DNA from: Phoronis australis | Taxonomy: Eukaryota > Animalia > Phoronida | Length of the DNA stretch: 64,000 bases | NCBI GenBank assembly: GCA_002633005.1 | Contig: NMRA01000177.1 | Span: forward strand, 697,942-761,941 | Direction: 5' to 3' | Part shown: in pieces, positions 9,494-52,500 of the stretch | Layout: every line of letters starts with the position of its first letter | How positions within the stretch are numbered: position 1 is the first letter of the stretch | The notes under the pieces: model-generated | Database searches by the model: none | What the model saw: the letters and a program-made list of their open reading frames with translations, nothing else | Told to the model about the DNA's origin: nothing | Translations under genes and position numbers: made by a program

Positions 9494-12400
9494 ATGTTTA
9501 TTTGGGTAAGGTAAGATACTAGATTTCTTAGAATGTTTTGAATTTATTGTTACGCCGTTTTTGAAGAACATACTCTTCAGCATAATGCGTTAAAATTTCA
9601 AAGCTTGTAAACTGATAAATCGATATTGCTCTGTTGTTGTATTGACGCCTCTTTTAAGGAAAGTCTTTGTTGACCTTGTTAGTCGTACGTTTGATCGTCG
9701 CAACAAATCGCTTTCAACTTTATTCAACTTTGGTTGAAATGAGAAGATAAAATACCAATGGAAGCTAACGTTTTTCATCTTAATGACAACGGTTAGAACT
9801 CATCGTCGCAGCCACGACCTGTCGCACGACCATTGTTGTAGATCAATCCCAAGGCCCGCAACAGTGGTTGCAGTGGCGTTCGGGCCAAAACGTTAACAAT
9901 ACCCAAAGCAATAAGATCTAAACTTATTAAGACAATTATAAAGATTTCCGATAATACCCTGACCAGACATTTCTACAGATTTTCAATGACCAAACATGGT
10001 CTTCTCCAAAGTAATGCGTTTTCTGGGAAAATGTTAAATTTACAACACACCAGAAAACGTCGTTATGTCCTGTGAACAAAATAGCCTATGTAGATTTTTC
10101 TTTTTTGCCAGAGGTGCCTTTGTTCAAGGGGCTGTAAGGGAAAAAGGTAATTATGTGACCACTGTTTCTTTGTAGATTTGTAGTGAGCAATACAAAATAT
10201 GAAAATTTAAGAAACTAACGATTAAAACGTCATTTTTTTGCATCATTCTCAAGCTTTTGGTTGTGTAAAGTTGAAAACAAAACGCTCACGAGACTCTCAT
10301 GTGCCGTTTGCTCGATGTTTGCGACACGATAACAACTTCGCCGAAGGAATATTTGCCCGGAATTTTAGTTGACATGTAATGAAATATTAGAAACTAAAAA
10401 TGAAGGGAAATCAATTCTTGTAATTTGGTGTGAACAGTACGCCACCTTGTGGAAGAACAGCTGACTGAAGAATTGCTGTACGTGAACTTGGAATCCTGCT
10501 TAATCTCAAGATTAAGCGGAAGTGAGTGTTGCGTGAACTTGGAATACGCGAGGCAACTTGACAAGTTCACTCAAATAATCACGTTCATGTTCATAAAAAT
10601 TTTCACTGCACTAAATCAAGTTACATTTGAATAAAATAATGTCAATTTTAACCAACCTTTTCAACTACGGGCGATCAGTTTCACCAAACATTAATGGATT
10701 TAGCCGTTCACATATTCCTCCGGTTCAGTTACGGTAAAGGAGAAAATAGTTGACCGAAAGGCCAATAATTACAAACATTCTTTTCACCGAACAAAAATTT
10801 CCCCTTTTTACCTTAAAGGCGAAGGCAACCTTTTTCATGTCACTTTTAGAAAAAATAAGATTCGTTGATTATCCCAGACACATTTTTCACTTAATTACAT
10901 CTTTTCGTAATTTGATTAATTGCTCGTCTTCTACTCCGGAAGTGACGTTTTGGGAGGCAAGAGTTTCGCGCCAATTTCTTTTCATTAAAGTCTGACCGTG
11001 AGAGCAGTCGAGTCAGTCATTGTTCTACCTCGTTTATGATAAGTTCGGTCGTCGTTTGCTTTTGTTTACAAGTCAGTCAACATACCACGCTGTTGCTACG
11101 TGCCGGGATGTACTCATTATCGTCTCACACGCGCTTTGGGTACCTTGCGTCGCTTTCCGAAGGATGACACACGTACTTGGCTAGCTCGTTCATGTGAAGA
11201 ACGCAGCGCTACCCGTCCACGCAACGTACAAAGCAATGGAGGGTTACCGAGTGTCTGGCAAGCATTTTCTGCCGTCAGATTATGACAGATATGTACGCTG
11301 AATTGATGAAAGTCCCTGCGAAACAACGCCTGAAGAAGGGTACCATACCGTCGCTGTTGATTCCCGGCAGTGCCCCATCGCCAACCCCGAGAAGTGCGTT
11401 TTTGAAGCGAGAAGCCTCGCGAGCTGTGGCCACTATATACAGTGACTGGAAGCACTTCATCTACTGTTACCCGTGTCTCCGAACGTACCCCATTGCGTGC
11501 AATTCCGGGAACTAGCAGTGATTCGCCCTGTGCTCATCTCTAGCCCAGAGCCTATAAGCAGCCCTGCAGCGATGTTGAGTAGTGGGAGTGAATACAGGCC
11601 CAGTTCGACACCCAGTGAAGAGGACAGTTCGTCATCCAATGAACAGATCGGTGAGCCTAAGTTTGACAAAATTATTGTGGACTTGTATTGGAGCTATTTG
11701 GAAGGTGCCAGGTGTGTGGTGCGGGAGTCACATGGCGGGATGTAAGCAGTTTGGGTGCTCAGATGACCCTTCAGTGGGAGTGTGTCGCGGGACACTCGGG
11801 CAAGAGAGACAGTTCTTCCTCTGTACGTGAGACGATAATGAGTACACCCCAGTACGCAACAACAGCGTGGCATGTTGACTGACTCGTAAGCAAAAGCAAA
11901 CGACGATCGAACTTATCACAACCGAGGTAGAACAATGACTGACTAGACTGCTCTCACAGTCAGACTATATGAAAAGAAATTGGCGCGAAATTCTTGCCTC
12001 CCAAAAGCTCACTTCTAGAGTAGACGACGACTAATTAATTAAATTACGAAAAGCAATAAATAAGTGAAAATATGTCTCGGATAATCAACTAACCTTATTT
12101 TTGCTAAAAATGACAAGAAAAAAGGTTGCCTTCGCCTTTAAAGAATATTCAATTCCTAGTTCACGCAACACTCACTTCCGCTTAATCTTGAGATTAAGCA
12201 GGATTCCAAGTTCAAGCACAGCAGAATAACGCGAAAAAGAAACTGGCGAACAGGTGGCGCTTTATTTCATGGCGACGGAAGCAAATGCATGTTAGTATAA
12301 ACAATTTAGCAACAGAACAACGATATAACCGTAACTTTAGCATCCGTAACCTATTCGCTTTGCTTAAGAAAGATTGTAAATTTAATGACGTAATTGTTTT

Positions 12401-17374: not shown

Positions 17375-18654
17375 NCATTTGCACCCCCCGAACTGCCAAA
17401 TTGAATCTGGGAAAATTTTAGGGGGGCATGGCTCCCTTGGGCCCCCTCTAAATCCGCCACTGCTACAGTGAAGGCAGGTAGTGTGACCATGTGCTTGTAA
17501 TAACTTACATGACGATATCTCACGAATTAAAATCTTGCAATTTCTCCAGGCACTCACGTCCACAAACGCATGCCCACTTAGCCCAATTCTCTGTACCGCC
17601 CGGCTCCGTCAGTTCAGTAACCCTGTCACGGTGTCGTCCAGGACATACTTCTCGAGTTGAACGCCACTATACGTCCAGCCGGCGTCTTTTGCTTCTCAGT
17701 GTATTTTCAAAACAGTCAAAGCGTTCTTTCAACTGTGGAAACAAATCATCCCATCGTCACTTGTTGGAAATGACTCGTACAAAAAACTCAGTCTATCTTG
17801 TACCTGTGCCGCAACTATGTTTTTGTAGCAGTTTTGAAAACAAATTCTTTCCTACTGCTGTTGTCAGTGTTGCAGACAGGCTTCGAGTGAAACTGCAAAT
17901 GATTTAATTTTCCATGACTTGCTACGCAGAGAATCAAAGAGACAAAATTCTTTTCGGCGACTGCAATTTGGTACAAAATAACACTCTTGATTGTATAGAA
18001 TACAAGCATCAAAACAATCCGAATGCGAGAAACCATTCTCACGTCACGATTAAGTTTGGTGGACGCGTGGTGTTTACATGTACGTAACCCTTGCAAGCAA
18101 ACGCCTTGAGACTTTTCCTTGGTGTTCGATGACCTTCCGTCTTGGATGGGAAATGCCGAGATATCCCCAAGATACAAAAACAATCCCCGCTGTGGCATCA
18201 CTACTAAGGCTCCTAAATTTGTTTGAGGCAAAGATCTCTAGCAATTTAGTCAGTTTTTATGTGATCCAGAGTACAGCAATACGTAGAAGGGTACCAGTGA
18301 AACTGAGAAGCAATACTTGACTAACGACAATGTCTCCAACTTGCCAGTCACTCTGTCGACTCTACAGGATTCTCTTGTTTTTGAGAGGATTTTAGTAAAG
18401 ATTATGCATTTTACTTTGGCAACTTATCCAGCATTCACGAAAAGATAGAGGAGCAATTGAACTTATGACTAATTGTGCTCCTGGACATTTACCCAGATTT
18501 GCAAAAAAAAGCAGGAGAACATAAACGAAACGATTGTTAGTTCGACTAAACTGACAAATTATGCTTGCTTTCTGTATACAAGAGCTACCTGGAGTGTTGA
18601 AACGAACCTACGACTGCAACGCAATTCCGTTAGCAATTTTAGTCATAAAAACGG

Positions 18655-18980
18655 TCATTAGATGTCACATGTGCGCTACTGGACATGATTTTAATACGGA
18701 CGATTTTACTATCTTAGACTGTGAGGGAGACTGGTTCAAAAGGGGTGTAAAGGAAGTTCTCCATGAGCGCATTGAGAGTCCCTCTTTAAATAAAAGAGGC
18801 GGTTTACGATTCGATTTGTCACACGTATGGGATGGTGTACTGACGTCAATGCCGCGCCGTTTAGCCAAAACGCCACCAATTGGCCAGAATTACGATAACG
18901 TCACAAGCCAAGCTGAAGTCCGTGAGATGAGGACGCAACGTCGCTAATTTTTGTGAGTTTTTATTCCAGTATTAGACTCA
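18655..18980 (+). mobile_element. Penelope-like retroelement 3' remnant (GIY-YIG C-terminal part)
   Basis: HMCATGHDFNTDDFTILDCEGDWFKRGVKEVLHERIESPSLNKRGGLRFDLSHVWD is a typical PLE endonuclease C-terminus; a degenerate hammerhead-like segment follows. Confidence 0.85.
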
Positions 18981-19820
18981 AATTTGATCTATTGAAATAA
19001 CATGCGCAAAAGGTATTGCGTTAAAGCAAATACAAAATACGACTATATTATAAACCTACTAGCAAAATCTGGGATATCATGAACAGGCAAGGATATACGT
19101 ACTTTGCAGTATAGATCAATGACCCCATGACGCCCATACTACACTCATGATGACATTTCACCGTTCACCTACACAACACCATAATCCAATAATTTTCTAC
19201 AATGGCCCCTGTTCACGTAAATGTGTAATAAAAAATCCAAGCTGGTCTATCGTAGTCGAGTAAACACCGGCTTTTCAAAATTCGTTCCTTATCAAACAAG
19301 CAAACAATACCAAAATCTGGTTCAGACACATGCTAATGTTAATTAAAAAAAAATGCAGGTCTTGGAAAATTATTTAAATGTGCACATGGTTCTGTTCAGC
19401 TCAGACACGGTTGCGGTGTCGAAAGTAAGGTAAGCGATTTCATCAACAGATCGATGTATGTCACAGATTATCTCCACATACGAATTATTCAGACTTTCCG
19501 ATTTTTATATATTTTTCTTTTACAAGTGTCGACCAAAAGTGCGGAGGCTTGAATAGATAAATTTGGAACCCCATGAATACCAGATCTAAAGTGTTTCTTG
19601 AAATTATCGGCTTCGGCCTTATGTCGCTTCTGAGCTGCGACACCATCTTTTCATCAAGAACAGTAGGTGACTTCATCCGGGTTCTTTTTGGTTATATTTA
19701 AAAATTATTGCCTTGCATGTGAGCGTTGAATCGACGAGAAGACGAGAAAATCCCACAAGCGGTCGGAGTGTTGACCGACGCCAATGTTATTTTCAAGTGT
19801 CCTTACCTTTTTTCAGAATC

Positions 19821-22563
19821 ATGCTCAACATGAAAGTTGCCAGTTTAATCTTACTGTCAGCGTGCGCTGTCGTAAACGGATATCTCGGTTTGGATAGATT
19901 CGACGACAGCTTTATTAGAGGCATCAGCTCGATGTTCTATTATCGGGGACTACAGAATCACCAGTATGCCGTAGGCGTTTTAAACTCGGGAGGAGACTCT
20001 TCGAAAAACCCACTCCATCCTTGCTACAGGGAATCGGGCAGCAAATACCTTGACAAGGCCAGGTGGTACACTATGGATGCCCCCGTTCGCTGGCAAAACT
20101 TCTGGGCGCGCGAACGCATTAAGGGCGACGTGAACATCCATGCAGAGATTCAGGTTTTGGACGCCCTCCCTGGCGTAATGAGACAGTTTGGCGATACTGT
20201 GAAGTAAGTTGGGTATAACTAAACTATGGGCAATTAGACCCTTCCTGCAACAAAGAACTAATTTTTAATTCAGCGTTCACATGCCGTCTTATCAGGTCGA
20301 CTGATCTTCCACTTGTTCCAACAAAAAACAAATGCATTTCAATGATCGTCAGATCTCAGGGGCCCAATTCTCGAATTGTATACTGGCAAACGTTTGGGTC
20401 GAGTTTTTAACATCCAAACGAGCAGGCTAGAGATTTGAAATTTGCCTTCAGGTTTTAGGCAGGTTTTCAGAATTCTTACCTAAGCCTAATTAAATGAAAT
20501 CTGCGAGAAACAGCCGCCTACCATGACATCAATTGTTGCTATCGCCTCAGAGCGACTGATGATATCTATGGTGACAGTTTATGTCGTAAGAACCCCTGCT
20601 GATCTGTCATCCTATTGCCCAATCACATCGATCTTCTCCCTGTGATTTGTAGTTATGGGTCTCTTCATGTTCACGGTAATCGTTGTGATTGGCCAAAATA
20701 TTAATTTCAAGTAAAGCCGGAAACTAAGTAAGACGACTTTGCAAACCCTGGCGTGCGTTCAGTAGACGCTAGGACCTACGCTAGGAGCTAGCTAAAAGCT
20801 AGTCAAAGTCACGTGTTCTCATTTAAAATGCACGGCATTATCTCACGTAATCTCGCGAAGTCTTGCCTTTTAGCGAAGTCCTAGCGTTACTGAACGGGAG
20901 GCTGATTTTAACGTTTGGTCTGCCACATTTTAGAGCAATACCACATCCCATCGTGATATCATTAACATTTGAATAGCCGTGCGCGTCTGTGTCCTGCCTT
21001 TCGCTATCCAGGTGCTTCACGAATCACCACTTTTATTGCATGCCCACGATAATCGCACGTGATTGACCAGAATATTGACTTCACAGAAAGGCGGTAACTA
21101 GGTAGGACGACATTGTAAACTTGGTTTTAACGTCTCTTATCTTTTTAATCGAAATGGAACTCGAAATTATAGTGCCGTTTACACCAAAAGTTGACAAAGA
21201 ACTAGTTGTTTCAGTGTGAAAACGGCACTGACACGGAGCGAATTGACACCCCGGTGAAAACTTTTGCCACCCGTTTGTGAGGTGGAGCAATTTGCGCTAC
21301 AACACCTTGCGTGCGTTCAGTAGACGCTAGGACCTACGGTAGGACCTAGCTAAAACCTGGTAAAAGTCACGTGTTCTCATTTAAAATGCACGGCAATATC
21401 TCACGTAATCTCGCGAAGTCTTGCTTTTTAGCGAGGTCCTAGCGTTACTGAACGGGAGGCTTGCTTCGTGTCAATTATGTGTCTAAACGCGAAACTGGGG
21501 CAAGGCGGAAAGGATCATCTCTACTGCGCTTGTGTAATGACCTCAACATGGGTTCTTTGTCTCTTCAACTCCCGTGATTTCTAAACCTACGCATGTGTGA
21601 TACACTCTCCAGCCTACAATTTCCGTCTTGCCACAGTTAGTGAGTTTTGTGTGTGAACGGACGCTTGACACCGATCAATTTGCTCCGTGTCAGTTGCGCC
21701 GGGCCAAAAGTTGATGTCTAAAGGGGACTTATGTTTGGCATTTTCTACTCTAGGCCTACTTTTGTGCGAACTCAAGATAAGTGTCTATTATTCTATGCTC
21801 GATTACATAAGGAATTACGTGGATAATTTATATTAGTCCTAGTTTGCAGTTGATAAACCCAACATTAATGCTAAAATCTCGAGTTTTCACTCTAGTTTGC
21901 AGCACGAATATAAAGGTCTTCAAGTGCAAACGTGGACTAGAAACTCATGTGCATAAACTATAATGTATTCGAGTACAGTCCGATAACCAGCTATCGTGAG
22001 TTCGCACAAAAGGAGCAGAGAAATTGCCAGAAATAATTTCGAGTTCATTTCAAGTACAAAGATTAGAGACGGGGCCCCCTGGCACTCTCTCGTTAGAACC
22101 TGGAAACATCTTTACACACCAGGGCTGAGTTGCATAAAGCTTCAAAAGATATCCGCTGGATAAGTTTGATTGTTGCATGACGTCATGTGCATTGTTCAAC
22201 AATAACAACGTGTCGCGTGATAGTGCGACGTCATTGTTGCTATACGGCGTTTAACTTTTATGCAACTGGGCCCTGATATATTTCAGAGAAATCCACATGT
22301 ACACACAACTGTCACCGTGCGAGCGATGTACCAATCGTATTGAACAATTTGCAAGGGAACACCCGACTGTGAATTTCTATATTGGTTACGACTACGTATT
22401 CACGCACGAGGAAGACCCAACCGGCCAAATAGCTTTGGACTACGCTAAAGCACGCTTTAGACCCTTGAAGAACCTGTGGTTTGATCAAGTTGCTGATCCT
22501 ACTAAGGGACCAGGGATGAGTTGCAGCTATGTAACAGGACGCAATGAAAACACCGTGTTCTAA
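19821..22563 (+). CDS. Secreted AID/APOBEC-like zinc-dependent deaminase (SNAD-like), 219 aa, exons 19821-20203 and 22287-22563
   Basis: Phase-2 GTAAGT...TTTCAG intron joins ...NIHAEIQVLDALPGVMRQFGDTVK to EIHMYTQLSPCERC..., giving HAE-x28-PCxxC. N-terminal signal peptide MKVASLILLSACAVVNG; 660 nt open frame with no internal stop; splice acceptor just before the ATG (19816). Confidence 0.9.
20747..20904. mobile_element. MITE of about 157 bp, copy 2 (deaminase intron)
   Basis: Near-identical to 15802-15959. Confidence 0.85.
21305..21461. mobile_element. MITE of about 157 bp, copy 3 (deaminase intron)
   Basis: Near-identical to 15802-15959; lies between the arms of another inverted repeat (ctgacacggagcgaattga ~21228 / tcaatttgctccgtgtcag ~21676). 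Confidence 0.85.
22120..22275. mobile_element. Harbinger/Tourist-like MITE next to the deaminase 3' splice site
   Basis: cagggctgagttgcataaa ... tttatgcaactgggccctg inverted termini. Confidence 0.65.
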
Positions 22564-22582
22564 CGGAGTAAATTATTGAACT

Positions 22583-22588
22583 AATAAA
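22583..22588 (+). promoter_or_regulatory. Polyadenylation signal of the deaminase gene
   Basis: AATAAA 20 nt after the stop codon, followed by GT-rich sequence. Confidence 0.55.
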
Positions 22589-25500
22589 GTTGTTTGGGGT
22601 AAGGTAAATGTTCGTCATCTTCACCACTATAAAACAAATCAAAATGTTATGAAAATACACTACTACGTATTCTTTACTGTCTCCTAGCTGTGTTTTTCTG
22701 TCATTCAAGTGGGGGAATTTCAGCCGTACTTTTCGAAGGAAAAATGTTTTGTGTAGTCTTTTACTTTTACGTAGTTTTCGAAGGAAAATGTCTCCGTTTT
22801 GGCCTGGTAAAACAGGTTAATAACCATGATTCTTTTTGTGCGTCTGACATTTGTTTTTTTCACAACGTCATTCATTTAAATGCCTTAAAACAATGTAATA
22901 ATAGCACGAATTTTACCTATTCCCATTTATGTCGCAATCTGCAAATGCTGTGTGTTAAAACTGTTCTTCACACTGTGCGCATACAGTTACTTACCAACTA
23001 AGTCACCCAATGTCTCATTACATGATAGTGACATCCTAAACACAAAAAATATTTATTTACTGCTTGCCTAACATTTTACATCGAACCACTTATCTTGGAG
23101 TTAATTTTACTCCAGCCCATTATATTGATTTTATGCGCCCGCATTTTGGGTGCACACTTCGGTTGCATCTCATCAGATTTGTACCTCTGAAAGTGGGCGG
23201 TTGATTTTCAGTGTGTTTATACCCAATATAGTGTTACAACCAATATAACTAGGTGATTGAACTTATTTAGACTGAACCAAGTAACTCAAAATTTGGGACG
23301 TTCCTTTACCTTTTAAGGTCAAATGCCATTGAATGACTCGCTGTTTTTTGATCCATTATCCTTTTGGTACATTTGAGGGATTTGGAAGATACACGAGGAT
23401 AATGAGTGATGGCAGACACGTGGGTCAAAAAGACTTAAATGGGTCAAAAGTACCATCATGGGCCAAAAGAACCGTATAATCGACAAACAAATGTTGTGTT
23501 CCCTTTGATTGTAAGCAACGGTGTCTAGAGCACGTTCTAAAACGGATCGCTACTGAAGTTGCGGCAGCCGACACACGACCTGAGAGTTGTAATGAACTGT
23601 ATTTATTAATGGAGGTAAATCCACTTGACAGCAATAGAAACTGTTATAGTGTACAGGGATGCTATGTATGAATGAACTGGCAGTAGTTTGCAGAGCTTAT
23701 TTATTCGCAGATGTCCAACATGGAACGATAAAAAATTTGAACAGAATATATAACGATTTGCAGCACCGGTTTTCAACCGATTACTTGACGGCAATGAACC
23801 ATTTTATTAGCAAATCATTTACTTTGCTAATCAATTTACACAATCTATGTAAGTACACCCGGCTAAACAACAAGATATAACAGTGCAAAGTAGTCTTCAC
23901 AAGCAGAAATAATCAAAGGCACCTACTAACAAATAAGAATCAGGTTCTTTCCGGCTATCTCTAGATTAAAAAATCTTATTAGACTGGATTAAAAAATATG
24001 GCGCAATCATTACTAAAGCATAGACTGGGTCAATATAACAGTCATGAAGTAAACACCATACTAATCTAGGTTGAGTATTCTGTTATAGCAAACGGTGTCA
24101 TACCCAAACGGAAACAATCTGGCCGCCGTGCAACACAGGTGCGAAGGTCACCTGTAAGCAACTGCATGGTATGACAAGGTATGCAAAGTACAACAAACTG
24201 AGCCCACAATTCATATAGTATATGGACAGTTCCTCATACAAATACTAAATCAACTCAGAAGTAGACAAATTGCAAACCCCTCCTCAAATGACAACACACG
24301 TCCAGATCAGCAATGACACATCCTTTCCGAAGCGCAACAGAAATGATAATGCTGTCAAAAGCAGGTCGAGTTCAGTACCTCTCTTTGGCAAAATACAGAG
24401 CCGGTTCCAATCAGTGGCTTGCACATCTGCTATATTGTGAACATGAACTCACATAATAACATTCTAAAAGAAACAACACAGACCAGTGGCACACTCAAAC
24501 ACGACCCAAGAAAAACTACGTGACAACCTGGTTCGACCGAGCCCCCCATTTGACGAAGTGGACAAAAAGGTCCGCCTCAAAGAAACAAAAAGTCCCAGAA
24601 AACGAGACAAAAGTCCACTAAAAAGACGCAGACGCACGGTTCTGAAGGTGGCACCCCGTTTTTCGTTTTTTTTTTAATCATCCCGATGTTTTGTCAGCAA
24701 AAGGTCCACATCGACAGCAATTCGAGCCCCCCATTTTCAAGGCTGGGTGCGCGCATATACAGGAGGTCTATACGAAATCATAGAACTCTAAAAGCCAACT
24801 AAAGCCAACTCCCGCACCTGACCTACACGCATCTCAGTGGCGGAATTAAGGGGGGAGGGGGGGGGGGGNCGTAAAGCGCTGCCATTTGAGAATTTGACTA
24901 GCCAATCAGAAACGCCGGTGTAAAAATTTTTCCTGGGGAAAATGAAGTGATACCTGCGTGCTGGCTACCACCTAGCGGCACGCAGGGAATCAGCGAGGGG
25001 TTTAACTCGAGTTTAAAAACAAATGAAAAAATGAAACAGTGACATATTGTCAGTTCAATGAGATGATTTCGTTGTGGAAAATGATTTTGTTTTCTACTTT
25101 TATAACCGATTTATGCGATCGCCCATTTTAGGCCGATTTGGGGGTCTAAATTCACCCTCTTTCGGTGAAATCAAAACGAGACAACGCTAGAAAAAACGTC
25201 AGTGCCGAACATTGAATGCATTACAGCGGAACAAAAATTGGTGTCATTTATTTCTCCGATTATGCTTCAAGTAAGATTTTAGGTAATGTCCGATATTTAG
25301 GGTCCGTCCGATAATTAGGTACACTATGTGTAGATGTCGCAAATGGTTGCTTAATCTCAAGATCACTTCCGTGAACTTGGAATAGAAATTTATTCCAACT
25401 TCACGCAAGATTCCAAGTTCACGCACGGCACTATTAGCCAATCCACGCTGTTAATCCAGCTCATTGTCTCAGGTTTCCAGTCACGTCAACTCTTCGCCCA

Positions 25501-26690: not shown

Positions 26691-29600
26691 ATGTCAGCGC
26701 CTGTGGTGAAATGGATTTGCCGACGTTTGACAAATTTATTGGGCTTTGAAGCTACTGAAGATGTTGCTAGGTGTGTGAATTAACGACGCGTAATTATACT
26801 CTCTGTACGATGCATACTTTGATGATAGATTTAACCGGACACAATTGACTAAAGCACCTGAACTGTTTCACATCCGTGACTAACTTTTCAGTATTGCACA
26901 ACATGGTGAAGACGAAGTGGAACTGAAAGATTTGGTAGCCTTAGTCTAGGAACCATATTGGTTCCTAGCCTTAGTTCAAAGCTGTGTATTGAATATAAAG
27001 CTTTGCGCAGATGTGGATACTGTCATTACTGTAATTGAAAACTGCACTCTTCCTTGAGTAAACAAAATTATTTACTGGTGTTACAGAAAAATGACGTTCT
27101 ATCGAATCTATCGTTATTCGACTGCTTAAGTTGTCGAACAGAGATGGCTGTGTGGGGTTTTGGCGCCATGAAATATAGAGTCACCTATTGGTCACTTTTT
27201 TATCAATCCTTCTGTCAACTGTTCTTCTTCCTCGAGGTTCCTAATGTGTCTCAACAAATTATCACAACTGGATTCTTTTCTTTGTATCTTTTGTATTTTA
27301 ATAAGCAAACCGAACAGAGTTTGTTGCTCCGAAGGTGCCATCATCTCCCGAGAGATGTCGCTAAAAATTAGGAAATGGCACGTGCATGTGTTCTGAGTGT
27401 AGGCCTACTGTTTTCAAAACGACAATGGACTTTTCTTTGTTTCAAAAGGTGGAGAATTATGGAAGAAAATGATGTTTATTAGATTGTTTTTTCACTTAAA
27501 TGGCTGCAACGGACAAGGTGAGTGTTGGTCCACTCTCAGATTTTGCGTGCACCCCCGCCGGTCGCTAGCTCTACATAAGTTTCACGATGAGGTGATGAGC
27601 ATAACTATCCAGGCGGTGTGAAATTTCAAAGTCTATTGTCCAGCTTAACATAATGGTTATAGTAGCTGTATTTTGACAATATAGCCTTCATACAGTTAGC
27701 TAGCTGGCTAACCTAACAGCTGCCGTATCTGGTTTTATTTTTGCCTGCATACTGTAGGTGAAAATCTGTTATTTTTAAAGGTATATTCTGGCCATAGAAG
27801 ATAAACAGGACCTTGAAGACTACTTATTGGAGCTGCTTGATGGAGGAGTTCCTGAGAACAGAACTTTCGTCAACCAAGTGCTGGCAAAGTGGACCCCTCC
27901 ACAGAGAGCTGTGGAAGTCCCACTTGAGGCTAAGGTACTCCCAACTAGTAATGTGATTGCCTATGCTTGGCATAATGCCAACTGGCCAAATGCGACCTGG
28001 CAAAATTCCCAGGTTGTCAAATGCGAAATGAGGTTTCTAAAACAACAACCCCTATGCTTAGCATATTGCCAACTGTCCTATGTTCCCGGGCAAAATTCTC
28101 TGGTTGTCAAATGCAAAATGATTTCTCTGAAACAAGGACACCCCTTTGCGCGCTGAATCCTTGGTGGGATAGGGCCATGGTGAAAACTTGACGTTGCTAT
28201 TAGCGTAGGTGAAGGGAAAATTTTTAAGTATTTTCATTGTTCATTGGCTCCTTTTTTCAATGCACAAACCTACTGTAATTGGCACAGGTTTCTGAAACAG
28301 TGATAGTTTTACAATTTTACGTCATGGTAAATGTACTGGAAAACAAATGCATAAAACATGGACCAAAAATGAGCTCTAATGTCCGTGATACAAATCAAAG
28401 CTCGGCACTAATGACTGTCTGACTGTCTTGGACAAGTAAACTTGTGATGCTGTTAATAAGTATTTACATACACGCGATGCTTAGTGAGAGGGAGAGAGAC
28501 CAGAAATCAAAACAGTTGGAGCTCAAATGAACCATGCTGAGCGTTACCTCAATAGAAATATTGGTTCATTTGAGCTCCAACTGTTTTGATGTCTGGTCTC
28601 TCCCTTTCACTACCAGTATATGCATTTTGACGTGTACCTGTACAGTCTCTTCTCTACCTGTGTCGCCTGTTTTGAGTCGGTGAACTGTTTCCTTGACAAT
28701 GATTTAGAGTAATAAACCGAAACGTTGGATAGATATATCGTTATTTACTTACACGCTAATTTTAAAGTTCGTGCTTCTGTTCTGGCCTAAATCAAATGCG
28801 AATCCTTGGAACAAAAATTTGCCAGGTCTCCTTTCTCGAGTTGGTCACGCTACACAAGCATCCTTAATTTCTGATTGTCAACAGTACACTATATATAATT
28901 AGTATTGTATATAGTGAATTGGCGACGATAGAAGCTAAGGACACTTGTGTCACATTAGAGAATAGACATTGAAAAATAAATAAGAATAGGTACCCCTAAA
29001 CTGCTGAAAACGATTAATGATTTAAAACTTTGTCAAGGTGAAATAGAGTTGTCAGGTAGTGACGCGATAATTAACTTTTGATGCCATGCTTGCAATAAGG
29101 GATAACCTGATAATCTGTTGCCATACCGACTACAGTTCTGTTGCCATACCGACTACAGTTCTGTTACCATACCGACTACAGTTCTGTTGCCATACCGACT
29201 ACAGTTCTGTTGCCATACCGACTACAGTTCTGTTGCCATACCGACTACAGTTCTGTTGCCATACCGACTATAGTTCTGTTGCCATACTGACTACAGTTCT
29301 GCTTTTTGGTCGAATATGGTGTACTGTTTGTAGAACAATGAAAATAGACTTATTGTTGGAAGTTGTCGTCGAAGTTTACCAAACGTGAATCGTACTGATT
29401 GGTCAGTTGGCGAGGTGACATTTGATGTTCAGATCAAAAGTGTAAATAATGGGAATGCTGACTTGAGTAACACTTCTATATGTTGGCAGCAAATGTTCTG
29501 TGCTGTTGAACAACACACTGGAATCTGCCAATTCTAGTTTCTTCAGAGTCCGCTCATGCGTTCGGAATCACCCACTTGTATAGGCACACAAGAATGAAGA

Positions 29601-32600
29601 GAACATAAACACATCAATACAAATACATCAAATACATTGATTTATTACTGGGTCTTCGATCAGACTCATCCATCATCGTCAAAGGAGAGAAATCACAAGC
29701 AACTGTCTCGAAAACATAGACACGTGTGAAAAAACGCAAACACGTAGAGACACCTTCCGATGCTGCTGAGAGCAAACACAAGGGACTAAGCAGTCAATGT
29801 GAATATGCGGTCTTGCCTAATGTGTGTTCACGGTTTGTGCACCTTAAGCACTGATTTTTAAATTTGAGTGAACAACCAAGACAAGGGGAAAGGACAGGGT
29901 CTGGTCTTCCATTTTCAAAAACGGAGAAATCATATTGGTGATACATAATTCTGTTTTTTATCATTTTTCATTCAGTCATATTACTATTTCAAAGTGGTTA
30001 ATGGCACAAGAGTAAGACTCAAGGTTGAAATGCACCCACTACTGCACGGATAGTTCTTGGCATTATTAAAATGGCCGCTAGATAAGAATGCGTTGAACAT
30101 GTATGAAAATGTGAAAGCATCGTTGTCTCCTTGATAGAAAAGTGTTTGCCACATTTCATAAAAATCTGTCAAGGAAATATAAAGATACACAGGCCAATTT
30201 TAAAAATGTAAAATGCCAATAGGAGGCACAACAGTAATCAGATCGCTCTACCTGTCGTCGAGTTCATAGGCATGCACTTGATCAAATTTCACAAAGAAGC
30301 CACGGGGTTTAGGAGATACAGCCACAGATGCGAAAATGCAACTAGGGGTCACCACCGTAGTCGCACTCTTCTGAAAATCACCACTCATGCTCTTGTCAGT
30401 AGGATCGCATTTACTTATTTTCATAATGATCCTATGAGCTGTTGGGTGCATACAGAGTTGGGCAACAAAAACAGACTAATAGCGAAAGCAACGTAAAGTG
30501 TTGAAATGCATCCCTGACTATACAGGAGTGTGTGTCATTCCAACTGATTACATAGAAGTCTTTGGCGAAGCTACAATCGGCAGAAGCCATTTTTTATGCG
30601 CCCACATATTTATATGTGGACGCATTATGCCGTCATCTCCGTCCGGGCGGCGTCCGCTGCTCTATCTCCAAAACCCTTTGACATACATTCATGAAATTTG
30701 GCACACATGTTCCATTCATGAATGGGACGGCATGAGCGAACTTTCGGACGGATCCGAGTACCAGTGTGCCCCAGATTTTCATGAAATTTAATATGTAGGC
30801 ACCTATTAGTGAGATGACGCTATCCTCCCGTTTTCTGATGGATTTGACGTAATTTGCGCTACCTAGTGGCCATTTTTACTGTTTTTGAGTCTGTTTTTTT
30901 GTGTCCACCCCTCTATCAACCAAACTGCTCAAAGGATGATTGTGAAAATTGGCATGTATGTGCTTACTATAAAAAGGACGGTTGACGATGATTTTTCGAC
31001 GATTTTGACTACTGTGGCACCTCCTAGTGGCAGTTTTGTTTTTGTTGCGTCTATGGCTGTATCTCCCAAAGCAATTTAGCAAGTGTATTTATATGATGTT
31101 GACTACAGATGACGACGACTTTTGGACAGATCTGAATGCTGCTGTGCCCCCTAGTTGCAATTATAGTTTTTTTACGTTGAACTCAGTATCTTCAAAGGTC
31201 CTCAACAGATTTTCATAAAATTTTAAGTATAGGCATTTAATGGTGTGACGACAATTTCATTTTATTCTGTTTTCCTTTGTTTCTCTGAAGTTCCTTGACA
31301 GATTTTTATGAAATATGGGAAGTTCCTGTTTTTGGATGGATTTTATGTTTTTGCGCCATCTCGTAACCATTTTTATTATACAAATAAATAACCCTAAAAG
31401 CACACCATTTGCAATGCATTCGTGGCTGCATTTCAACGCTCCGCGTTGCTCTTGTTTTCCAACAGGGCATGACCTGCGTAAATGTATAACAATTTCAAAA
31501 CAAAAGTTTCACACTGATTTTCAAAGATTTATCGTGTGGTTTTTTCTAGGTTTTCATCATGTTTTCAAAAAAAATGTAGAGTTTTTTCAAATGGATTGCA
31601 GCAATAACTGTGTACATTTAATGTGCAGGTTTACAGAAAGAAGGAAGCTGAAGACTTCATACCTGCCGCTAAGGACAAGGTCAGCTCTGCTGGTGGTACT
31701 GCCAGACAAAAGGTATGGATGACAGAATAAATGTATGGATGGCAGTAGATATCAAACAACAGTGGGTGGCTGGATTTTGCTTATTTTTAGTGGAGCATTT
31801 GAAGGGATCAGACTGATGCATTCTGTAGACACATGCTTAAACGTCCTTAAATTATGATTTGAGAAGTCAGAAAAATATGATGGACAAATCTCCCAGCCCT
31901 AATGTTGCAGACTACAAGCAATACATTCTATAAATAGACAGCTTAGTAGAGTCACGCCTGTTGACGAGGTGACAATTTTGATTAGTTGTTGTGAGATCCA
32001 CATGGTTGCAGCAACATTGCAACAGTTGGGGAAATAGAATCTTATGGTGATTTGTAATATTTTGCGACAGATGTTATGAGATTAAAAGGGCCAATGCGAT
32101 ATTCATTTTCTAACCAGCTAAACGTGGTGAAATGCATCTTTGATGAATATTCGTGTCGAAAGTCATTGAGTAAAGATTGATCAAGTTATGAATGATAACA
32201 CTGGTTTTTCCGTGAAAACTCTCAGGTCAAGTCGAGCCTTACCCAGGATGATGTACTGCCCTCTAGTGAGACTGGGGCAAGAAAAAAGAGCAAGTACGTT
32301 GCGCTCTACAGTCAAGAAGGAGTGGAGAAGACCACAGTGATGCTGAAAGGTCAGTCAGGGATGAGAAACCCAGAATTACAAATCGGGCTCAAAATGATTT
32401 ACCTTTACCCATTCATTTTATCAGTTTGCAAACAGTTTCACCAACATCTAAGTCACATTTTCATTTGTTCATATTGTCAACTTTTATATCATGAATACAC
32501 AATTTGAAAAAGTTCAGGTGAATGGTAGTTAAACTGTTAATTATTTCTTTTGGAAAATTTTGATTCTGAGAGGTCTAGTACACCAGGTTGGTACTCATAC

Positions 32601-35600
32601 CTTGTAATAACATTACATTGGCTGCTCAGCAAATTAAAAATGTCTGCCTTAGGTTTGCGTAAGACCTTATCGACAACTCTGTGTATGTTGCCAAGTATTA
32701 GCAAAACTATAGATTTTAACCCCGTAAAAATGCACATTTTCTGAAAGTAGAAAGCCTGTAAACATTATACCAATGTCCCACTGAGTGATGTGGCTTTGAC
32801 TTTTTAGTAAAATTTAAGCAAAAGAGAAAGATACGTTCATAGCAAAACAACGGTAACAATGCAACAAAATTTCATTAGATATAAATTTTCAAGATGAAAT
32901 CTCACAAATGGTGGTACATTTTTTACGTATTCTGTTTCTATTTTATGCAACTTTTGAGTTTTATCCAAACACTTTGGAGAACAATACACAAAGCATAATA
33001 TCTGAAAGTTATCCAGTCAGCCCTTTCTGATGTATGATGTTCCAAAAATAGTCAAGTTTGGACATTTTCCTATGGTCCTACGTATCCTCCTTTAAACTTT
33101 CTCTGTTCATTGCAGGACGGCATGTCTGCGAGTGCCAGTGCAGGAAACACAAGTTGATTAGCAACTGTCTGAAGTGTGGCCGTGTTGTCTGTGAACAGGA
33201 GGGCTCTGGACCCTGCTTGTTCTGTGGAACTTTAGTAAGGGATCATTGTTACCAATACAAACGTTTATAAAAAATAATTGCGTGCGGTCTGGCACACGTT
33301 GTACCAGACATGCACTAGCTGCTCAGGTGGGCTCATTGCACTGATCACCTGGATCCATTTTGATGCTTTATTTATATATGATTAAAACCAAGCTGAGGAG
33401 CTAGAGACATGACTCAATGGTCTAGCAATGTGCTCCAGTGGAACTTGAACCTAAGATCTTGAGTAACGAAAGTGGATACTTATCCTGCTACGCTGCACTG
33501 CAGTTATCAAAATAAACTAGACAACGTCAGTTTGATGTAGCCTTTACTTTTGCAGCTTAGCATCTACTTTGGTTTAGAATGAGACATTTAATTTCAGCTA
33601 AATGTTGTCGACACATCTTGTGTCAGGTTTTAATCTTTCAATTCGAAAATATTTTTGATATATTCCGTTCTTCTTTGGTACAAACTTAAAATACATATCT
33701 ATTGTTCTGTGCCTGAGAATATTGTAGATTATGCAAATGAGTGCGTAGCTCAAATTTGGACTTAATGACCCCTAAACTCCAGCTGCAAACTCTTGTAAAA
33801 ACCCCAAGTTTTGAGTAAAAAGATTAGATTCCGAGCACAGATATGTAAAATTTGTGCCTGTGTATCTAGTTATTTATTGTTGCATTTGGCATGTAAAGTG
33901 CATGTCTGTTGACTTCAGTTTTCAATATGAGCAGACTTGTTGCTCTTTCCAAGCCCGGGGGCCTTTTTCATGAAAGTGTTTTGAAACTAAAGTCAGAAGT
34001 TTGATCCCAGCACCCTCGATGACTCGATTTTGCAGCCGAATATTGACTCCTTTCCCGTATGAAATGTATTTAAAAGTCATGCGAAATTCCCCTCATGAGG
34101 CCCAAAAGTTTCCTTACAGTGATAAAAAAGTTGAGTGGTAGAATTTGAAATTGGCTGCTTAAGGCATTGCTGACGAGGGGTAGTGATTGAGTGATGTAAT
34201 TTGAAATTAGTGGTAACTAAGAGGTATTTCTGCTCAAGAAAAGTTCCCCTCAGAAGGCACAGGCACCTTTCTCCTCAAGTGACTGGTTGTCAAGCTGTTG
34301 TCGACCTGCCGGACAAATATTCGTGATGTGTGCTGTAAGTTCAGGGAATCGTAGCTGTTGTATGTTGCTCGTTTATAACCAAGACGGTGCATTTGTTGCA
34401 GTATGTGACATCAAACTGTTTCATCCCCGTTGTAAAACCAATGCCTTCACAACCNCCCAAGTTTTGAGTAAAAAGATTAGATTCCGAGCACAGATATGTA
34501 AAATTTGTGCCTGTGTATCTAGTTATTTATTGTTACATTTGGCATGTAAAGTGCATGTCTGTTGACATCAGTTTTCAATATGAGCAGACTTGTCGCTCTT
34601 TCCAAGCCCGGGGGCCTTTTTCATGAAAAGTGTTTTGAAACTAGAGTCAGAAGTTTGATCCCAGCACCCTCGATGACTCGATTTTGCAGCCGAATATTGA
34701 CTCCTTTCCCGTATGAAATGTAATTAAAAGTCATGCAAAATTCCCCTCATGAGGCCCAAAAGTTTCCTTACAGTGATAAAAAAGTTGAGTGGTAGAATTT
34801 GAAATTGGCTGCTTAAGGCATTGCTGACGAGGGGTAGTGATTGAGTGATGTAATTTGAAATTAGTGGTAACTAAGAGGTATTTCTGCTCAAGAAAAGTTC
34901 CCCTCAGAAGGCACAGGCACCTTTCTCCTCAAGTGACTGGTTGTCAAGCTGTTGTCGACCTGCCGGACAAATATTCGTGATGTGTGCTGTAAGTTCAGGG
35001 AATCGTAGCTGTTGTATGTTGCTCGTTTATAACCAAGACGGTGCATTTGTTGCAGTATGTGACATCAAACTGTTTCATCCCCGTTGTAAAACCAATGCCT
35101 TCACAACCACCCACTCTGCTCATCTATAGGTATGTACCAGGGAAGAGCGCGAGGTTTTATCACGTGGCTCTAAGAAGAGCGAGAAACTATATCAGCTTCT
35201 TACCAACAGCAAGCCTGAACTTGACACAGCGGTAAATCGCAAGAACAGATTGTTGGAGTATGACAGAACCTCGTAAGTGATCATGGGTTAAAAGTTGTCA
35301 GTGACATTGCATCTAGTACATGTATTCTCAAGTCAACTAGTTACATTGAATTACAATTGTGAACAGACATCAGTGGTCAGTCGCGGACTATCATTCTGTG
35401 CCACAAGTTTAATTTTCATAAGGATGCATCTTTCATAGCAGTTGAGAGCCCATGTTTACTCGATTACAAAATTTCCGATGAGCATCATGATGGGGTCACA
35501 TGAAACTCTTCAAATGCCTAGTTTTTCTGTACATGGCATAAGCAGATTGACTACTATATCAGAGACCATGGCCAATACTATGATCGGCTAACAATGATCA

Positions 35601-38600
35601 ATAATTAAGAAACTGTCAAGATACTGTACTCTCTACAAATACTTCCGTGCGGCAAACATTTTTTTTCTGACGCTTGCAAGCAGAATTTATTTTAAAATGA
35701 AAATATTGGTGTGCCAAATTTTGTAGAAGTAGGCAGTGATGGTAAACATGTTTATTTTACCTTACCTTATTTGCTAAATTAGAAGATGTGCTGTGGAGTC
35801 AACAACAATGCATGTTGTCACAAGTCGACATCGGTGTCTGGCTGAAGAGTATGAACATATTTGCCTAGCTGTGTCACTCAGATCAAAGAATTTTCACATA
35901 TGAAATACCGAATTTTCATGCTTGCCCTCCGCCACCGTGTGGATCCAGATACCTTGACATGTGTGTAATGCATTGGCCACAATCAATTTATGGTGTGGGG
36001 CGAAAAGCACAAGTCATTTACTTGGTAGGGTAGGATCTAGAATGGACACTTGTTGGGACCAGCTGAATACCTGGCGACATCTGCCCAATAGACGAATGAA
36101 TTTTAATCAATGGTTTGCAACAAGTTTCCTGTCAACTCGCTTTTTGTTGTGACAGTGTGAGGCGAACTCAAGTGATCGATGACGAGGCAGACTACTTCAC
36201 GACCGACTCCAACCAGTGGTTGAGTAAAGACGAAAAACATGCTTTGCAAAAACGGGAACAGGAGTTGCGCGAAAAACGTCACGCTTCGCGGCTGGACCGG
36301 AAGGTCACGCTAGACTTTGCCGGTCGACGTGTGCTGGAGGACAGTGAAACTGTGAACGTCTACAATCCTAAGGACGAAGTTGTGCTGCAGGTCTATAACA
36401 AAATGAACCCCGAGTTGTCTGGCGACAGGCTTGTCAATCCTTCACTATCACGAGAAGGGCCAGTGGTAGGTGGTGGTATAATTGTTGAATTATACAACTT
36501 GTCAGAGCTTAGAGCATGCAGTTTTGACAGTTAATTAGTTATACTTAGGGGGACAGGCATGTTGACGTGTCTGAGACTACAATTATCATTTGTCGAGCAA
36601 GTGAATTGTTAACAGCCATTCTTCAAATCAGCATTTCAAAAAAGCATGTCACAGTTTTCATTTCAAATTTCCAAAACTGGAAAATTCTCGATAAACATTT
36701 TGCATTACCCATGCTATAAGTCGGTCTCCTTATAAAAGTCTTCTGATGTAGATCACTCTTTGTTTTAAAATTTAAAAAAATAATCAAATTGTCAACTTTT
36801 TGTGAAGTCCTTTCGCATTTCATTTACTAACCTTTGACCTGTCCATTTCCAACCCATAAAAGTATACTAATAACATATGTTTTAGAATCCTTGATGACTG
36901 AGAGATCTTAATTCATACCTTAAAATGTGAGACAATCACTTGTAAGCACGTGACCGCCATTTTTGTTGGAAATCATGTTTACTTTTAACGTAAATTTCTA
37001 ACGCGTAACTTGCAGGAGAATTTATGTTTTAGCTGTATGTGTTCTTATTGGCAATACTTAGTGAGAGATCCCAGATTTTTATTTTAACCTCAAAATCAAT
37101 AATCGGAGAAATGGTTCCCATGGCAACAGACTATATTATAATTGCGCAAAATTTCATGCGAATCAACGTACTCTGTACAGAGTAATTGATGTTCAAAACT
37201 GTTAAAATTGCTGAAAATCATCAGCCCTGAAAATGGCTGAGGAAGATATACCGCAAAATTGAAGGTTTATTTTGATTGGCATTGGAACAAAAAGTTAGTT
37301 TTATGTGGTAATATTGTGAAAATTGCATTTTTGAAAAAAATCCAGTCGACCCCTCTGCCATTTACTTGAATTTTAGAAATTATTTCTGTGCTTAGGAAGA
37401 ATTAACACATCGCTTGGATTTTGAGTGATGGCTTAACTGACCAATCAGAACGCAGCATTTTTGACACACGTTCATTTCCAAGCCACCATTTTACCTGACA
37501 CACAACACATTACTGGGTGAAACTTATTGTTTGTTTGTCAATATTTCGCAAGGGGGTGCAGCTTGCGATATGTCAATTGACATCTCATTATTGGTATATA
37601 ATGAGACATGCTTTGACTTAATAAGGTTAATAGTGGCTATGGTCTAAGTTTTGATGTATTAAGATATTTGCGTACACAATCAGTAGTAAGTCTCTAATAA
37701 ATCGGCCGAAATATTTCATCATTGAGATTGCTATATTTGTTGTTGTTTTAGTTTGTTGACGCCACTTCTAAGCTGAAGAAGAAGAAGAAGACTAATAGTG
37801 TTGACTCCTCTCCTGAGAAGAGGTCACACATGCGTCTTCAGGATGCTGACCTGCATGAGATGTCTGATGAAGGCATGTGTCTGAGTATGCACCAGCCGTG
37901 GGCCTCGCTCCTCGTGCGTGGGATAAAACTGTGAGTTTCAATTGAACAATGAATTTCTAACTACAGTACGGTAATCCTTCAACTAGTTAGCACTCAAGAT
38001 GGCAAGCATGTGAAATTTCATTTTGTTGTTAAGTTGTTTACGTAACAACAGAAGTGTGGTGTTGTTAGAGTTGTAAAGTTTGATTCTTATTGTCCTGTGA
38101 TGTCAACTTTTTTAATTAATGTGAGAAGCTGTGAGAGAAGGTGTTGACATATGATTACTTAACATGATTGCTATTCTGAAGTGTCAAAGGCGGAGTTAAA
38201 ATGGTACAAAGAACTGAATGTAAACATAAGATAAGTTTCTTGAGAGGATGTTTAATGCGTTCCATACAACACAACAAGAGACCCTAGACTTAGCTGGTTC
38301 CAGTTTAAGTTGTTGAGGAGGATTTTGCCTACGAATTTCTTTCTAAAACTAATTCAAGTTACAAATGATGACTCTTGCCTTCTGTGGACAATATACAGAA
38401 ACTTTGAAGCACTTGTTTTGGGGCTGTGAAACCGTGAACCTATTTTGATGTGAAGACGTTGATTTTTTGGACGGATGTGACAACTTTGGCACCTCTTAGT
38501 GGTGATTTTGTGTTTTTAGCATCCTCGGCTGTATCTCCTTTGAAAGATCTTTGAAATTTTGCGGGTGTTTTCTATAGATGTGACTATGGCTGCCTACGAC

Positions 38601-51366: not shown

Positions 51367-51912
51367 TCAGAATCCTCCTGGTATGTAATTATTGTCGCCA
51401 CGTTGCCCACGCGCTGCACGCCTCTGCCGAATAACGTCATTACGTCCAGCAATGTAGGCATTGTCAAGGCGGATACGGTCAATGTTTGCAAGCCCACTGA
51501 GAGTCCAGTAGCCAGGTATCAGGCCCAATGTTTCAAAAACATTCACTCTGCCTAATTCACCTTCATTATACACAATCGCTGCATCAAATACAGCCAGTTC
51601 AAGGCGCTTTCTACCAACGAAGGTAGTTTTGGGGCAACGCTCCCAAACCAGATTGTGGAAGCTTTCGTTGGCGTTCTGTGTGCCACCGTGAGCGCACTTG
51701 TGAAGTAACTCCATGTCAGACAAAGATACAAACACTGGCCTAATTGCTTCACAGACATAATGTGGTAAGGCATTAGCATTGGGATCACCGCGTCCAGATT
51801 TTGATGGGCACCAGTCACCACAGGCTTGATGATCACGATTGCGATGTCTAAATATTGCCCAGATGGCATTGTACATTGCCTGTACATTTCCAGCATTTTC
51901 GCGTATGGCAGC
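51367..51912 (-). mobile_element. Second copy of the transposase C-terminus (probable assembly overlap or allele)
   Basis: Highly similar to 52501-53046; truncated exactly at the single n (51913). Confidence 0.75.
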
Positions 51913-52500
51913 NAGGTAGGTTCATTTTAGCATAATAAATTGCTTTCAAGTGTTTTGACAACTTAATTTGCATATCATTAGCAATTCAAAATGGCCGCCG
52001 CATGACCCAGAGTGAAAAACATAGCACACTTTGAAACACTGTGGACTAAAAAGTATTTATCCAATCAATTTGAAACTTAGCAAAATGATTTATACCAATG
52101 AGCTGCATGTTATGAACTAGAGACATTCCATTGGGTGTCTTTGCTCCGGATTTACACACGATATTTGATATTTCTGCTAAAAATATCATTCAACCCTCAT
52201 TTAAACATAGCTAAAATGAAATTGGGTTGGACTTCACTTTCAAACTTAGTTCGTAACATGTAGAATAGTACTGTGAATCTACCCTGAGAATTTCAAGCAG
52301 TTATCTTTAATACTTATTGAGATATGACGTTTCAAGTCTGCTTTGGTAGGCGAAAAATACAGTATGGCCAAAAATCGCTGTTAAAGTAAGAAAACGACAA
52401 ACATGCGTATAAAAATGAACACAACAGCTTGTAACCAAAGAAAGACCAAAGATTATGAGCAGCATTTGACAGTTAATAATAAAATGTCACAATCTATGTG

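Follow-up and report, generated by a model that had tools for sequence, protein, structure and literature searches.

An expressed gene that probably encodes a secreted AID/APOBEC-like deaminase, filling the gap between sponge and vertebrate SNADs

The secreted members of the AID/APOBEC-like deaminases (AADs) have been described as SNAD1, SNAD2 and SNAD3 in vertebrates and as SNAD4 in sponges, with no AAD recorded in cephalochordates or hemichordates, in the available portions of PMC5889660; PMC11004436 and PMC13402138 repeat this distribution of the SNADs. In AADs the zinc is held by three ligands, a glutamate is the catalytic residue, and an aromatic residue of loop 7 selects cytosine (PMC5889660); their zinc site has been defined as H[AVS]E-x(24-36)-PCxxC (PMC5956068). 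SNAD1 of fish and sharks is present in plasma and responsive to infection (PMC11004436, PMC9207270, the shark plasma protein being from PMC9207270). The available portions of PMC13428168, PMC9334734 and bioRxiv 2025.01.31.635879 make no mention of an invertebrate SNAD, and a literature search, whose coverage did not extend to subscription papers, brought up no invertebrate bilaterian for which a secreted AAD had been reported. We describe here a gene on the plus strand of a 64-kb stretch of Phoronis australis DNA (contig NMRA01000177.1, positions 697,942 to 761,941; this whole stretch of 64,000 nucleotides is called the window) that probably encodes a secreted AID/APOBEC-like deaminase filling the gap between the sponge and the vertebrate SNADs. 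A preliminary description of the window had read the gene as a secreted AID/APOBEC-like deaminase, and had placed the secreted members in vertebrates and sponges, in agreement with PMC5889660. This reading is supported: the gene, the motif and the predicted signal peptide all stand, the cysteine signatures of SNAD1 are missing, and activity, secretion and an immune role are what we infer.

The gene is intact, consists of three exons, and is spliced and transcribed. The RNA evidence comes from four runs aligned to positions 19500-23000 of the window, namely X1, which consists of contigs, and the raw-read runs X2-X4, of each of which 18-19% was read. The secondary-structure labels in the following list were assigned by eye against Figs S1 and S15 of PMC5889660.

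19416..19429, plus strand: exon 1, non-coding; reads reach about 19416, and the 5' end is not mapped exactly
19430..19816, plus strand: intron 1, GT...AG, 387 nt, with its donor at 19430, a polypyrimidine tract, and AG at 19815-19816
19817..20203, plus strand: exon 2, with a 4-nt leader and, from the ATG at 19821 on, residues 1-127 plus two bases of codon 128; it encodes the signal peptide, helix 1, strand 1 (QYAV), an insert with C68, strand 2, H107-A-E109 and helix 2
19821..19880, plus strand: predicted signal peptide, residues 1-20
20204..22286, plus strand: intron 2, GT...AG, 2083 nt, phase 2, occupied by dispersed repeats; X2 and X3 contain the joint 20203/22287
22287..22563, plus strand: coding part of exon 3, residues 128-219, with strand 3 (YTQLSPC), C139 and C142, helix 3, strand 4, loop 7 (YDYVF), C207 and the stop codon
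22564..about 22600-22620, plus strand: 3' untranslated region, with AATAAA at 22583, 20 nt past the stop; its end is approximate

Spliced together at the donor GTAAGT and the acceptor TTTCAG, 19821-20203 (383 nt) and 22287-22563 (277 nt) make 219 codons followed by a stop; of all the AG sites lying in 22100-22330, the one used here is alone in leaving that frame unbroken as far as 22563. Coverage in X2-X4 is stranded over both coding exons, drops to zero just beyond the donor, and is about zero again beyond the bin ending at 22658. The exact joint 20203/22287 was found in 18 reads of X2 (13 starts) and 15 reads of X3 (14 starts); it was found in no read of X4 and in none of the X1 contigs, both of which show sister joints of divergent copies. 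The splice proposed in the preliminary description, with its canonical GT-AG sites and open frame of 219 residues, is thus borne out by junction-spanning reads in two runs. The residues to which that description drew attention are also where it put them: H107-A-E109, P138-C139-E-R-C142, C68, C207, QYAV at 48-51 and YDYVF at 162-166, to which may be added C15 and YTQLSPC at 133-139. Intron 2 itself carries unstranded read pile-ups with loose ends. Between 20742 and 22275 it contains a 162-nt direct repeat present twice (93% alike) and two pairs of inverted repeats, one of which has 26-nt arms and ends 11 nt ahead of the acceptor; RNA from both strands is rich in these repeats.

The start of the message matters to the argument, because an upstream coding exon would undo the reading of a signal peptide. 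In a second alignment of the reads, to 19700-20260 at 80% likeness, loose 5' read ends (median 13-22 letters) were found to match the 12 letters 19418-19429, which are followed directly by the donor GTAAGC. Since these ends precede a GT donor, and AG stands at 19815-19816, a tiny non-coding exon 1 is proposed; its joint to exon 2, which is absent from the joint list, appears from the loose ends to be as given above. Depth is 0-3 over 19700-19813, the part of intron 1 that was aligned, and there is no ATG in 19389-19429. A trans-spliced leader was considered as the source of the short 5' piece and rejected, because the piece is found in cis, 387 nt upstream, where a GT donor follows it. Met1 (Met4 in one read type) is therefore the start, being the first ATG of the messages seen. 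The copies differ at 19817-19832: the first three codons are missing from one read type, which would start at Met4, and others have different leaders; the hydrophobic N-terminus is kept in all copies, as far as the listed differences show.

Hydropathy over 11-residue windows peaks at 2.4 at the N-terminus (window from residue 7) and nowhere exceeds 0.97 in the mature chain. K5, a hydrophobic core at 6-17, V18 at -3 and G20 at -1 have the form of a signal peptide, and the read differences listed in V18 and G20 are all silent. The signal peptide of the preliminary description is in this way upheld by hydropathy, together with the RNA evidence for Met1 as the start. Cleavage is predicted at VNG|YL, on the strength of hydropathy and of small residues in positions -3 and -1, and removal of residues 1-20 would leave a secreted, soluble protein of 23 kDa. 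The mature chain shows neither a second membrane segment nor a retention signal, and no site for N-glycosylation; it has a predicted isoelectric point (pI) of 6.65, which is neutral, with no basic cluster, and carries no delivery domain. That the gene specifies a real secreted protein of AID/APOBEC type is, in our view, very probable.

Membership of the AAD superfamily is carried by exon 3. The zinc site conforms to the published pattern, with C139 32 residues after H107 and PCERC as its second half, and the loop-7 aromatic is F166 of YDYVF, both by eye against the rows of Fig. S1 and in a pairwise alignment with the insect protein P0002 described below. Pfam scans were made on the single exons and on residues 40-128. 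Exon 3 alone lies above the cut-offs for SNAD4 (32 bits, cut-off 27), NAD1 (29.3), APOBEC1 (27) and APOBEC_N (26.7), with 24.1 bits for the toxin-deaminase family and 15.8 for dCMP_cyt_deam_1. The best family matches are thus of AID/APOBEC type rather than CDA, dCMP deaminase or TadA (SNAD4 at 32 bits against dCMP deaminase at 15.8), as the preliminary description had held. The SNAD4 model is unspecific, since P0002 also scores best with it (108 bits), and automatic 'SNAD4' labels are common on invertebrate proteins for this reason. Exon 2 alone matched no Pfam family, residues 40-128 matched neither PF18744 nor PF18745, and NCBIfam gave 0 families for both exons. A sequence search of the PDB returned APOBEC3G and APOBEC3F as best matches, weakly (E 0.02-0.1); two chitinase matches to exon 2 were put down to chance.

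HMMER searches with exon 3 against 1.84 billion representative proteins gave three matches, two of which (P0001 and P0003) were rejected as repeat proteins without the motif. The third, P0002 (KAJ9578442.1), is from a cockroach; it has two AAD domains, with a hydrophobic stretch resembling a membrane helix after each, and is possibly two fused gene models. Word-based searches for homologues retained none of 6 candidates for exon 2 (at E 0.01) and none of 28 for exon 3 against longer proteins. Translated scans with exon 2 retained none of 123 candidates in metagenomes and none of 2 in viruses. With exon 3 they kept 6 of 210 in metagenomes, 1 of 9 in viruses and 1 of 70 in prokaryote genomes, and all eight (L001-L008) were rejected: in L001-L007 the matched frame lacks HxE..PCxxC, L002 being an unrelated bacterial open reading frame (ORF) that shares a short word, and in L008 the match is antisense to an unrelated ORF of 532 residues. 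At this sensitivity there is therefore no sign of a recent bacterial or viral donor. The protein, metagenome, viral and prokaryote-genome collections searched thus held no close relative, and sequence searches of them returned no SNAD. Single-sequence AlphaFold2 models of the two halves reached pLDDT values of only 32 and 38, and Foldseek gave no match with the low-confidence model of the second half.

The N-terminal half is where the likeness to SNAD1 (PF18744), a family of cold-blooded vertebrates, sharks and platypus (PMC5889660), is found. By eye, this half follows SNAD1 in order: helix 1 starts a few residues past the signal peptide, strand 1 fits the consensus Q-Y-A-h of Fig. S15 in PMC5889660, and a cysteine (C68) lies in the loop after strand 1. 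The word QYAV itself occurs in the platypus and cyprinid rows of SNAD1 in that paper, so that the resemblance noticed in the preliminary description agrees with the published consensus; when the sequence was shuffled 200000 times, 503 of the shuffles placed a Q[YF]A-hydrophobic word 45-75 residues ahead of the histidine, the motif having been chosen after it had been seen. The insert between strand 1 and strand 2 is of about 38 residues, like the long insert of SNAD1, whereas classical AADs and SNAD4 have a short turn there. The 59 residues from Q48 to H107 correspond to a SNAD1-like insert length, its helicity and homology being judged by eye only. One fish row, XP_018606707, can be aligned without a gap from helix 1 through strand 1, and again from strand 2 through I-H-A-E. 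The H-u-E and F-a-o-b-p-S-P-C consensus elements of SNAD1 are also matched, by eye, and strand 3 has the Y-T-x-x-S-P-C found in 3/3 SNAD1 and 2/2 SNAD3 rows of Fig. S1 (PMC5889660). The three top feature matches of exon 2 in the ESM Atlas were SNAD1/SNAD2 clusters (0.85, 0.83 and 0.82). The sixth row of that search was an unnamed cluster of 427 residues at 0.78, comprising 62 eukaryote proteins, mostly from molluscs, without a Pfam family; it may be an unrecognised invertebrate relative or a chance match.

The locus is one of several expressed copies. Near-identical reads (at least 99%) make up 166 of 1108 in X2, 113 of 829 in X3 and 38 of 1828 in X4; 14, 10 and 2 reads, respectively, lie at 95-99%, and the majority at 95% or below, so that the distribution of identity is bimodal; copies with a likeness of about 90% or lower supply most of the reads. 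The joint between exons 2 and 3 occurs in four forms (20203; 20200 with three further letters; 20191 with twelve further letters; and 20202/22292), with the intron position kept in all; three of the four occur in X2 and three in X4. These joint types, at least four in number, and the bimodal identity point to a small gene family: the forms in one run exceed two alleles and are therefore taken as paralogues, unless the samples are pools, on which the labels are silent. There is no paralogue elsewhere within the window. With all read classes summed, expression in the three raw-read runs amounts to about 225, 189 and 428 reads per million per kb, against 34, 26 and 9 for the near-identical class alone. 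Exon 2 shows 95 differences; counted over the 40 with the best support, and with several copies pooled, there are 10 replacement and 2 silent changes in residues 21-82, the start of the mature chain, and 3 replacement and 10 silent in residues 83-128, strand 2 to helix 2 (Fisher p 0.005). None of these 40 is at QYAV, C68, H107 or E109. The pattern shows constraint on the core; it only suggests diversification near loop 1, because the test pools copies and covers the 40 best supported differences.

It is tempting to suggest how such a protein would work. Residues 1-20 would route the chain into the secretory pathway before being cut off. In the released protein, by analogy with the family, H107, C139 and C142 would hold the zinc, E109 would shuttle the proton, and the loop-7 aromatic (F166 by eye) would narrow the pocket to a pyrimidine. 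A predicted disulfide between C68 and C207 would link the insert with the tail and leave the two zinc cysteines free. The enzyme might then convert cytosine to uracil where single strands of microbial or viral nucleic acid are exposed. The weakest step is this target, which would be single-stranded DNA or RNA of foreign origin, encountered in body fluid, mucus, phagosome or lysosome. Action outside the cytosol is more plausible than self-delivery, since there is no delivery domain and the pI is neutral, and entry into target cells would need a carrier. We consider it an even chance that the protein is an early-branching relative of the vertebrate SNAD1-3 line that is secreted and deaminates exposed foreign single-stranded nucleic acid; a role in defence against foreign nucleic acid is just as evenly balanced. 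Common descent with SNAD1-3 is somewhat favoured.

Several observations weigh against these proposals. No SNAD had been shown to have activity, according to the available portions of PMC11004436, and kappaB-like sites number 4 in the window against 4.05 expected, with none near the gene. The Pfam models of SNAD1 (PF18744) and SNAD2 (PF18745) match neither exon, even at E 10. There is no clear loop-3 asparagine: N105, two residues before the histidine, is K in most reads, although this position is variable in the SNAD1 rows too (PMC5889660). The ESM Atlas scores are below 0.9 and the recognition value of 2175 is below the tool's mark of 2300, so that its matches are treated as leads only; exon 3 alone drew bacterial toxin-deaminase-like clusters at 0.75-0.78 and not SNADs. 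The only real match among the 1.84 billion proteins is the insect AAD P0002 (E 6.7e-5), which carries no evidence of secretion, and the back half as a whole reads like that of ordinary AADs. The substitution test, as noted, draws on pooled copies and on 40 of 95 differences. SNAD1 has Cx3C where the present protein has Cx2C (no Cx3C occurs in it), the SNAD1 cysteine at the start of strand 3 is absent, and the C---CxxC---C cluster of SNAD1 and SNAD2, in neomorphic strands 6 and 7, is missing. Only C207 remains, which in its context S-C-S-Y may match, by eye, the first strand 6 cysteine of SNAD1 and SNAD2. Because the cluster and Cx3C are missing, the deaminase is not filed as SNAD1.

A different history would account for some of these points, namely that the signal peptide was acquired independently by an AID/APOBEC-like gene of the classical, intracellular type, whose likeness to SNAD1 is convergence or chance; even then the product would remain a secreted deaminase. 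For helix 3 and strand 4 the best alignments are indeed those with insect AADs and APOBEC3, and Cx2C, the lack of a Pfam match to SNAD1 or SNAD2 and the missing SNAD1 cysteines would all be expected. Such an origin would, however, leave the order and spacing of the N-terminal half (helix 1, the QYA strand, the insert of about 38 residues) to coincidence, and the ESM Atlas points to SNAD1/2 for exon 2, while the marks of the described invertebrate clades (NYS, WP, GLH with loop-7 cysteines, helices 5 and 6) are absent or without room. We regard it as unlikely. The protein might instead be a housekeeping or digestive enzyme, secreted to act on free cytidine, cytidine nucleotides or dietary nucleic-acid fragments, with no immune role. 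Its high and steady expression in 4/4 runs, whose library labels name no challenge, would fit, as would the neutral pI without a basic cluster or delivery domain, and small extracellular substrates are easier to meet than naked single strands. Yet the family matches are to polynucleotide deaminases and not to CDA or dCMP deaminase, and diverging copies with replacements in the loop-1 region fit conflict better, by the argument of PMC5889660, so that this too seems improbable.

More improbable still is a non-catalytic binder of nucleic acid that has kept the motif, or a protein held on the membrane or in the endoplasmic reticulum by an uncleaved N-terminal anchor. Zinc-thiolate sites can become oxidised outside cells, which would suit a non-catalytic form. 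The four catalytic positions are nevertheless all intact, and no replacement is seen at H107, E109 or the -3 and -1 residues among the listed read differences. An anchor would be in keeping with a cleavage site placed by hydropathy, and six fish SNAD1 proteins have been predicted to be membrane-anchored (PMC11004436), but the hydrophobic stretch of about 12 residues is short for this purpose.

With an early-branching, secreted relative of the SNAD1-3 line as the preferred reading, it may be suggested, tentatively and at slightly less than even odds, that this is the first invertebrate bilaterian member of that line: a stem form with a SNAD1 front and an ancestral back half, belonging to an abundantly expressed, diversifying family. 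If so, secreted cytosine deaminases would have served animal defence from early on and extended to at least one invertebrate phylum, instead of having been invented twice in isolation, by sponges and by cold-blooded vertebrates. The 2018 survey (PMC5889660) inferred a split at the base of the animals, which predicts invertebrate bilaterian members that it did not find, and an expressed family in such an animal would fill that gap in the distribution. Being short and poor in cysteines, this version would then lend itself to a first assay of a SNAD; with only two non-catalytic cysteines and natural variants in the loop-1 region, it would let substrate and sequence preference be tested directly, and as a divergent deaminase it is a candidate for editing-tool screens.

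The neighbourhood can be described briefly. An ORF remnant at 18555-18947 (plus strand), 470 nt upstream of exon 1, resembles by eye what we take to be the endonuclease end of a Penelope-type retroelement, with no Pfam match. Downstream, at 26691-41222 (plus strand), lies a multi-exon gene for TRIP4 (activating signal cointegrator 1). The best identities of its long exon are 53-56%, among the best 120 of 206 matches, and those of eight exon pieces are 57-62%, with bivalves first. In a tree of 19 rows, 18 of them picked from the 120 listed, with no jawless fish, cnidarian or other invertebrate phylum, TRIP4 sits on a long branch that is placed outside the jawed vertebrates with support of 100/99 and, weakly, outside the three molluscs (81/79). 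By this marker the host is likely an invertebrate and, less firmly, a bilaterian. Further features are pieces of a Mutator-like transposase at 51367-53789 (minus strand), with the C-terminal part near-duplicated (51367-51921 and 52501-53382); an exon with three thrombospondin type 1 repeats at 61647-63063 (minus strand), of a gene that runs off the window and probably has more exons upstream; THAP-like fragments at 59578-59931 (minus strand; weak Pfam THAP match, E 0.0002) and 11198-11515 (plus strand; by eye only); and a tandem duplication of about 860 nt at 43612-44826, with two near-identical ORF-like stretches at 43612 and 44476.

The classical invertebrate AADs comprise the Lop-Ech-Cni and Lop-Ech-Zn2 clades, with SpAIDL and Lingula AIDL (PMC5956068), and the arthropod AADs. 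They share with the present deaminase the spacing HxE-x(24-36)-PCxxC and, in insect P0002, a likeness in helix 3 and strand 4; lineage-specific expansion likewise occurs among them. They differ in having no reported signal peptide (the available portions of PMC5956068, on the sea urchin and brachiopod enzymes, never mention secretion or a signal peptide), in their NYS and WP, in GLH where the present protein has GLQ at 43-45, in loop-7 cysteines, and in helices 5-6, for which there is no space here. The secreted AADs of dictyosteliids, compared from their descriptions, resemble it in a signal peptide, an insert after strand 1 and small expansions (Table S1 of PMC5889660), but their C-terminal four-cysteine domain and loop-7 tryptophan are absent, there being one C-terminal cysteine and F166.

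Among the SNADs, SNAD1 differs also in its hosts, that of the present deaminase lying outside jawed vertebrates; SNAD2, as defined by PF18745, does not match its exons. SNAD4 (PF18750), from sponges, resembles it in the signal peptide, Cx2C, an acidic run after loop 7 (E169-E170-D171) and a strand 4 of consensus I-Y-l-G, and gives exon 3 its best Pfam score; it differs in its loop-7 tryptophan (F166 here), in a charged residue before SPC (Q-L-S-P-C here) and in lacking the long insert between strand 1 and strand 2. SNAD3 of ray-finned fishes is similar, by eye, in a QYA strand in one row, Y/F-T before the cysteines and I/V-G-Y/F in strand 4, but has lost the signal peptide and gained large N- and C-terminal additions, unlike the present protein, whose tail runs 23 residues past the presumed strand 5 with one cysteine (S-C-S-Y). 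As judged from its sequence, the deaminase would function as an AAD, resembles SNAD1 and is no member of SNAD1, 2, 3 or 4 as defined. It would appear to combine a SNAD1-like front half with a plainer back half, in which Cx2C, a short helix 3 and strand 4 are like those of insect AADs and SNAD4, and so to join features of SNAD1, SNAD3 and SNAD4 in one chain.

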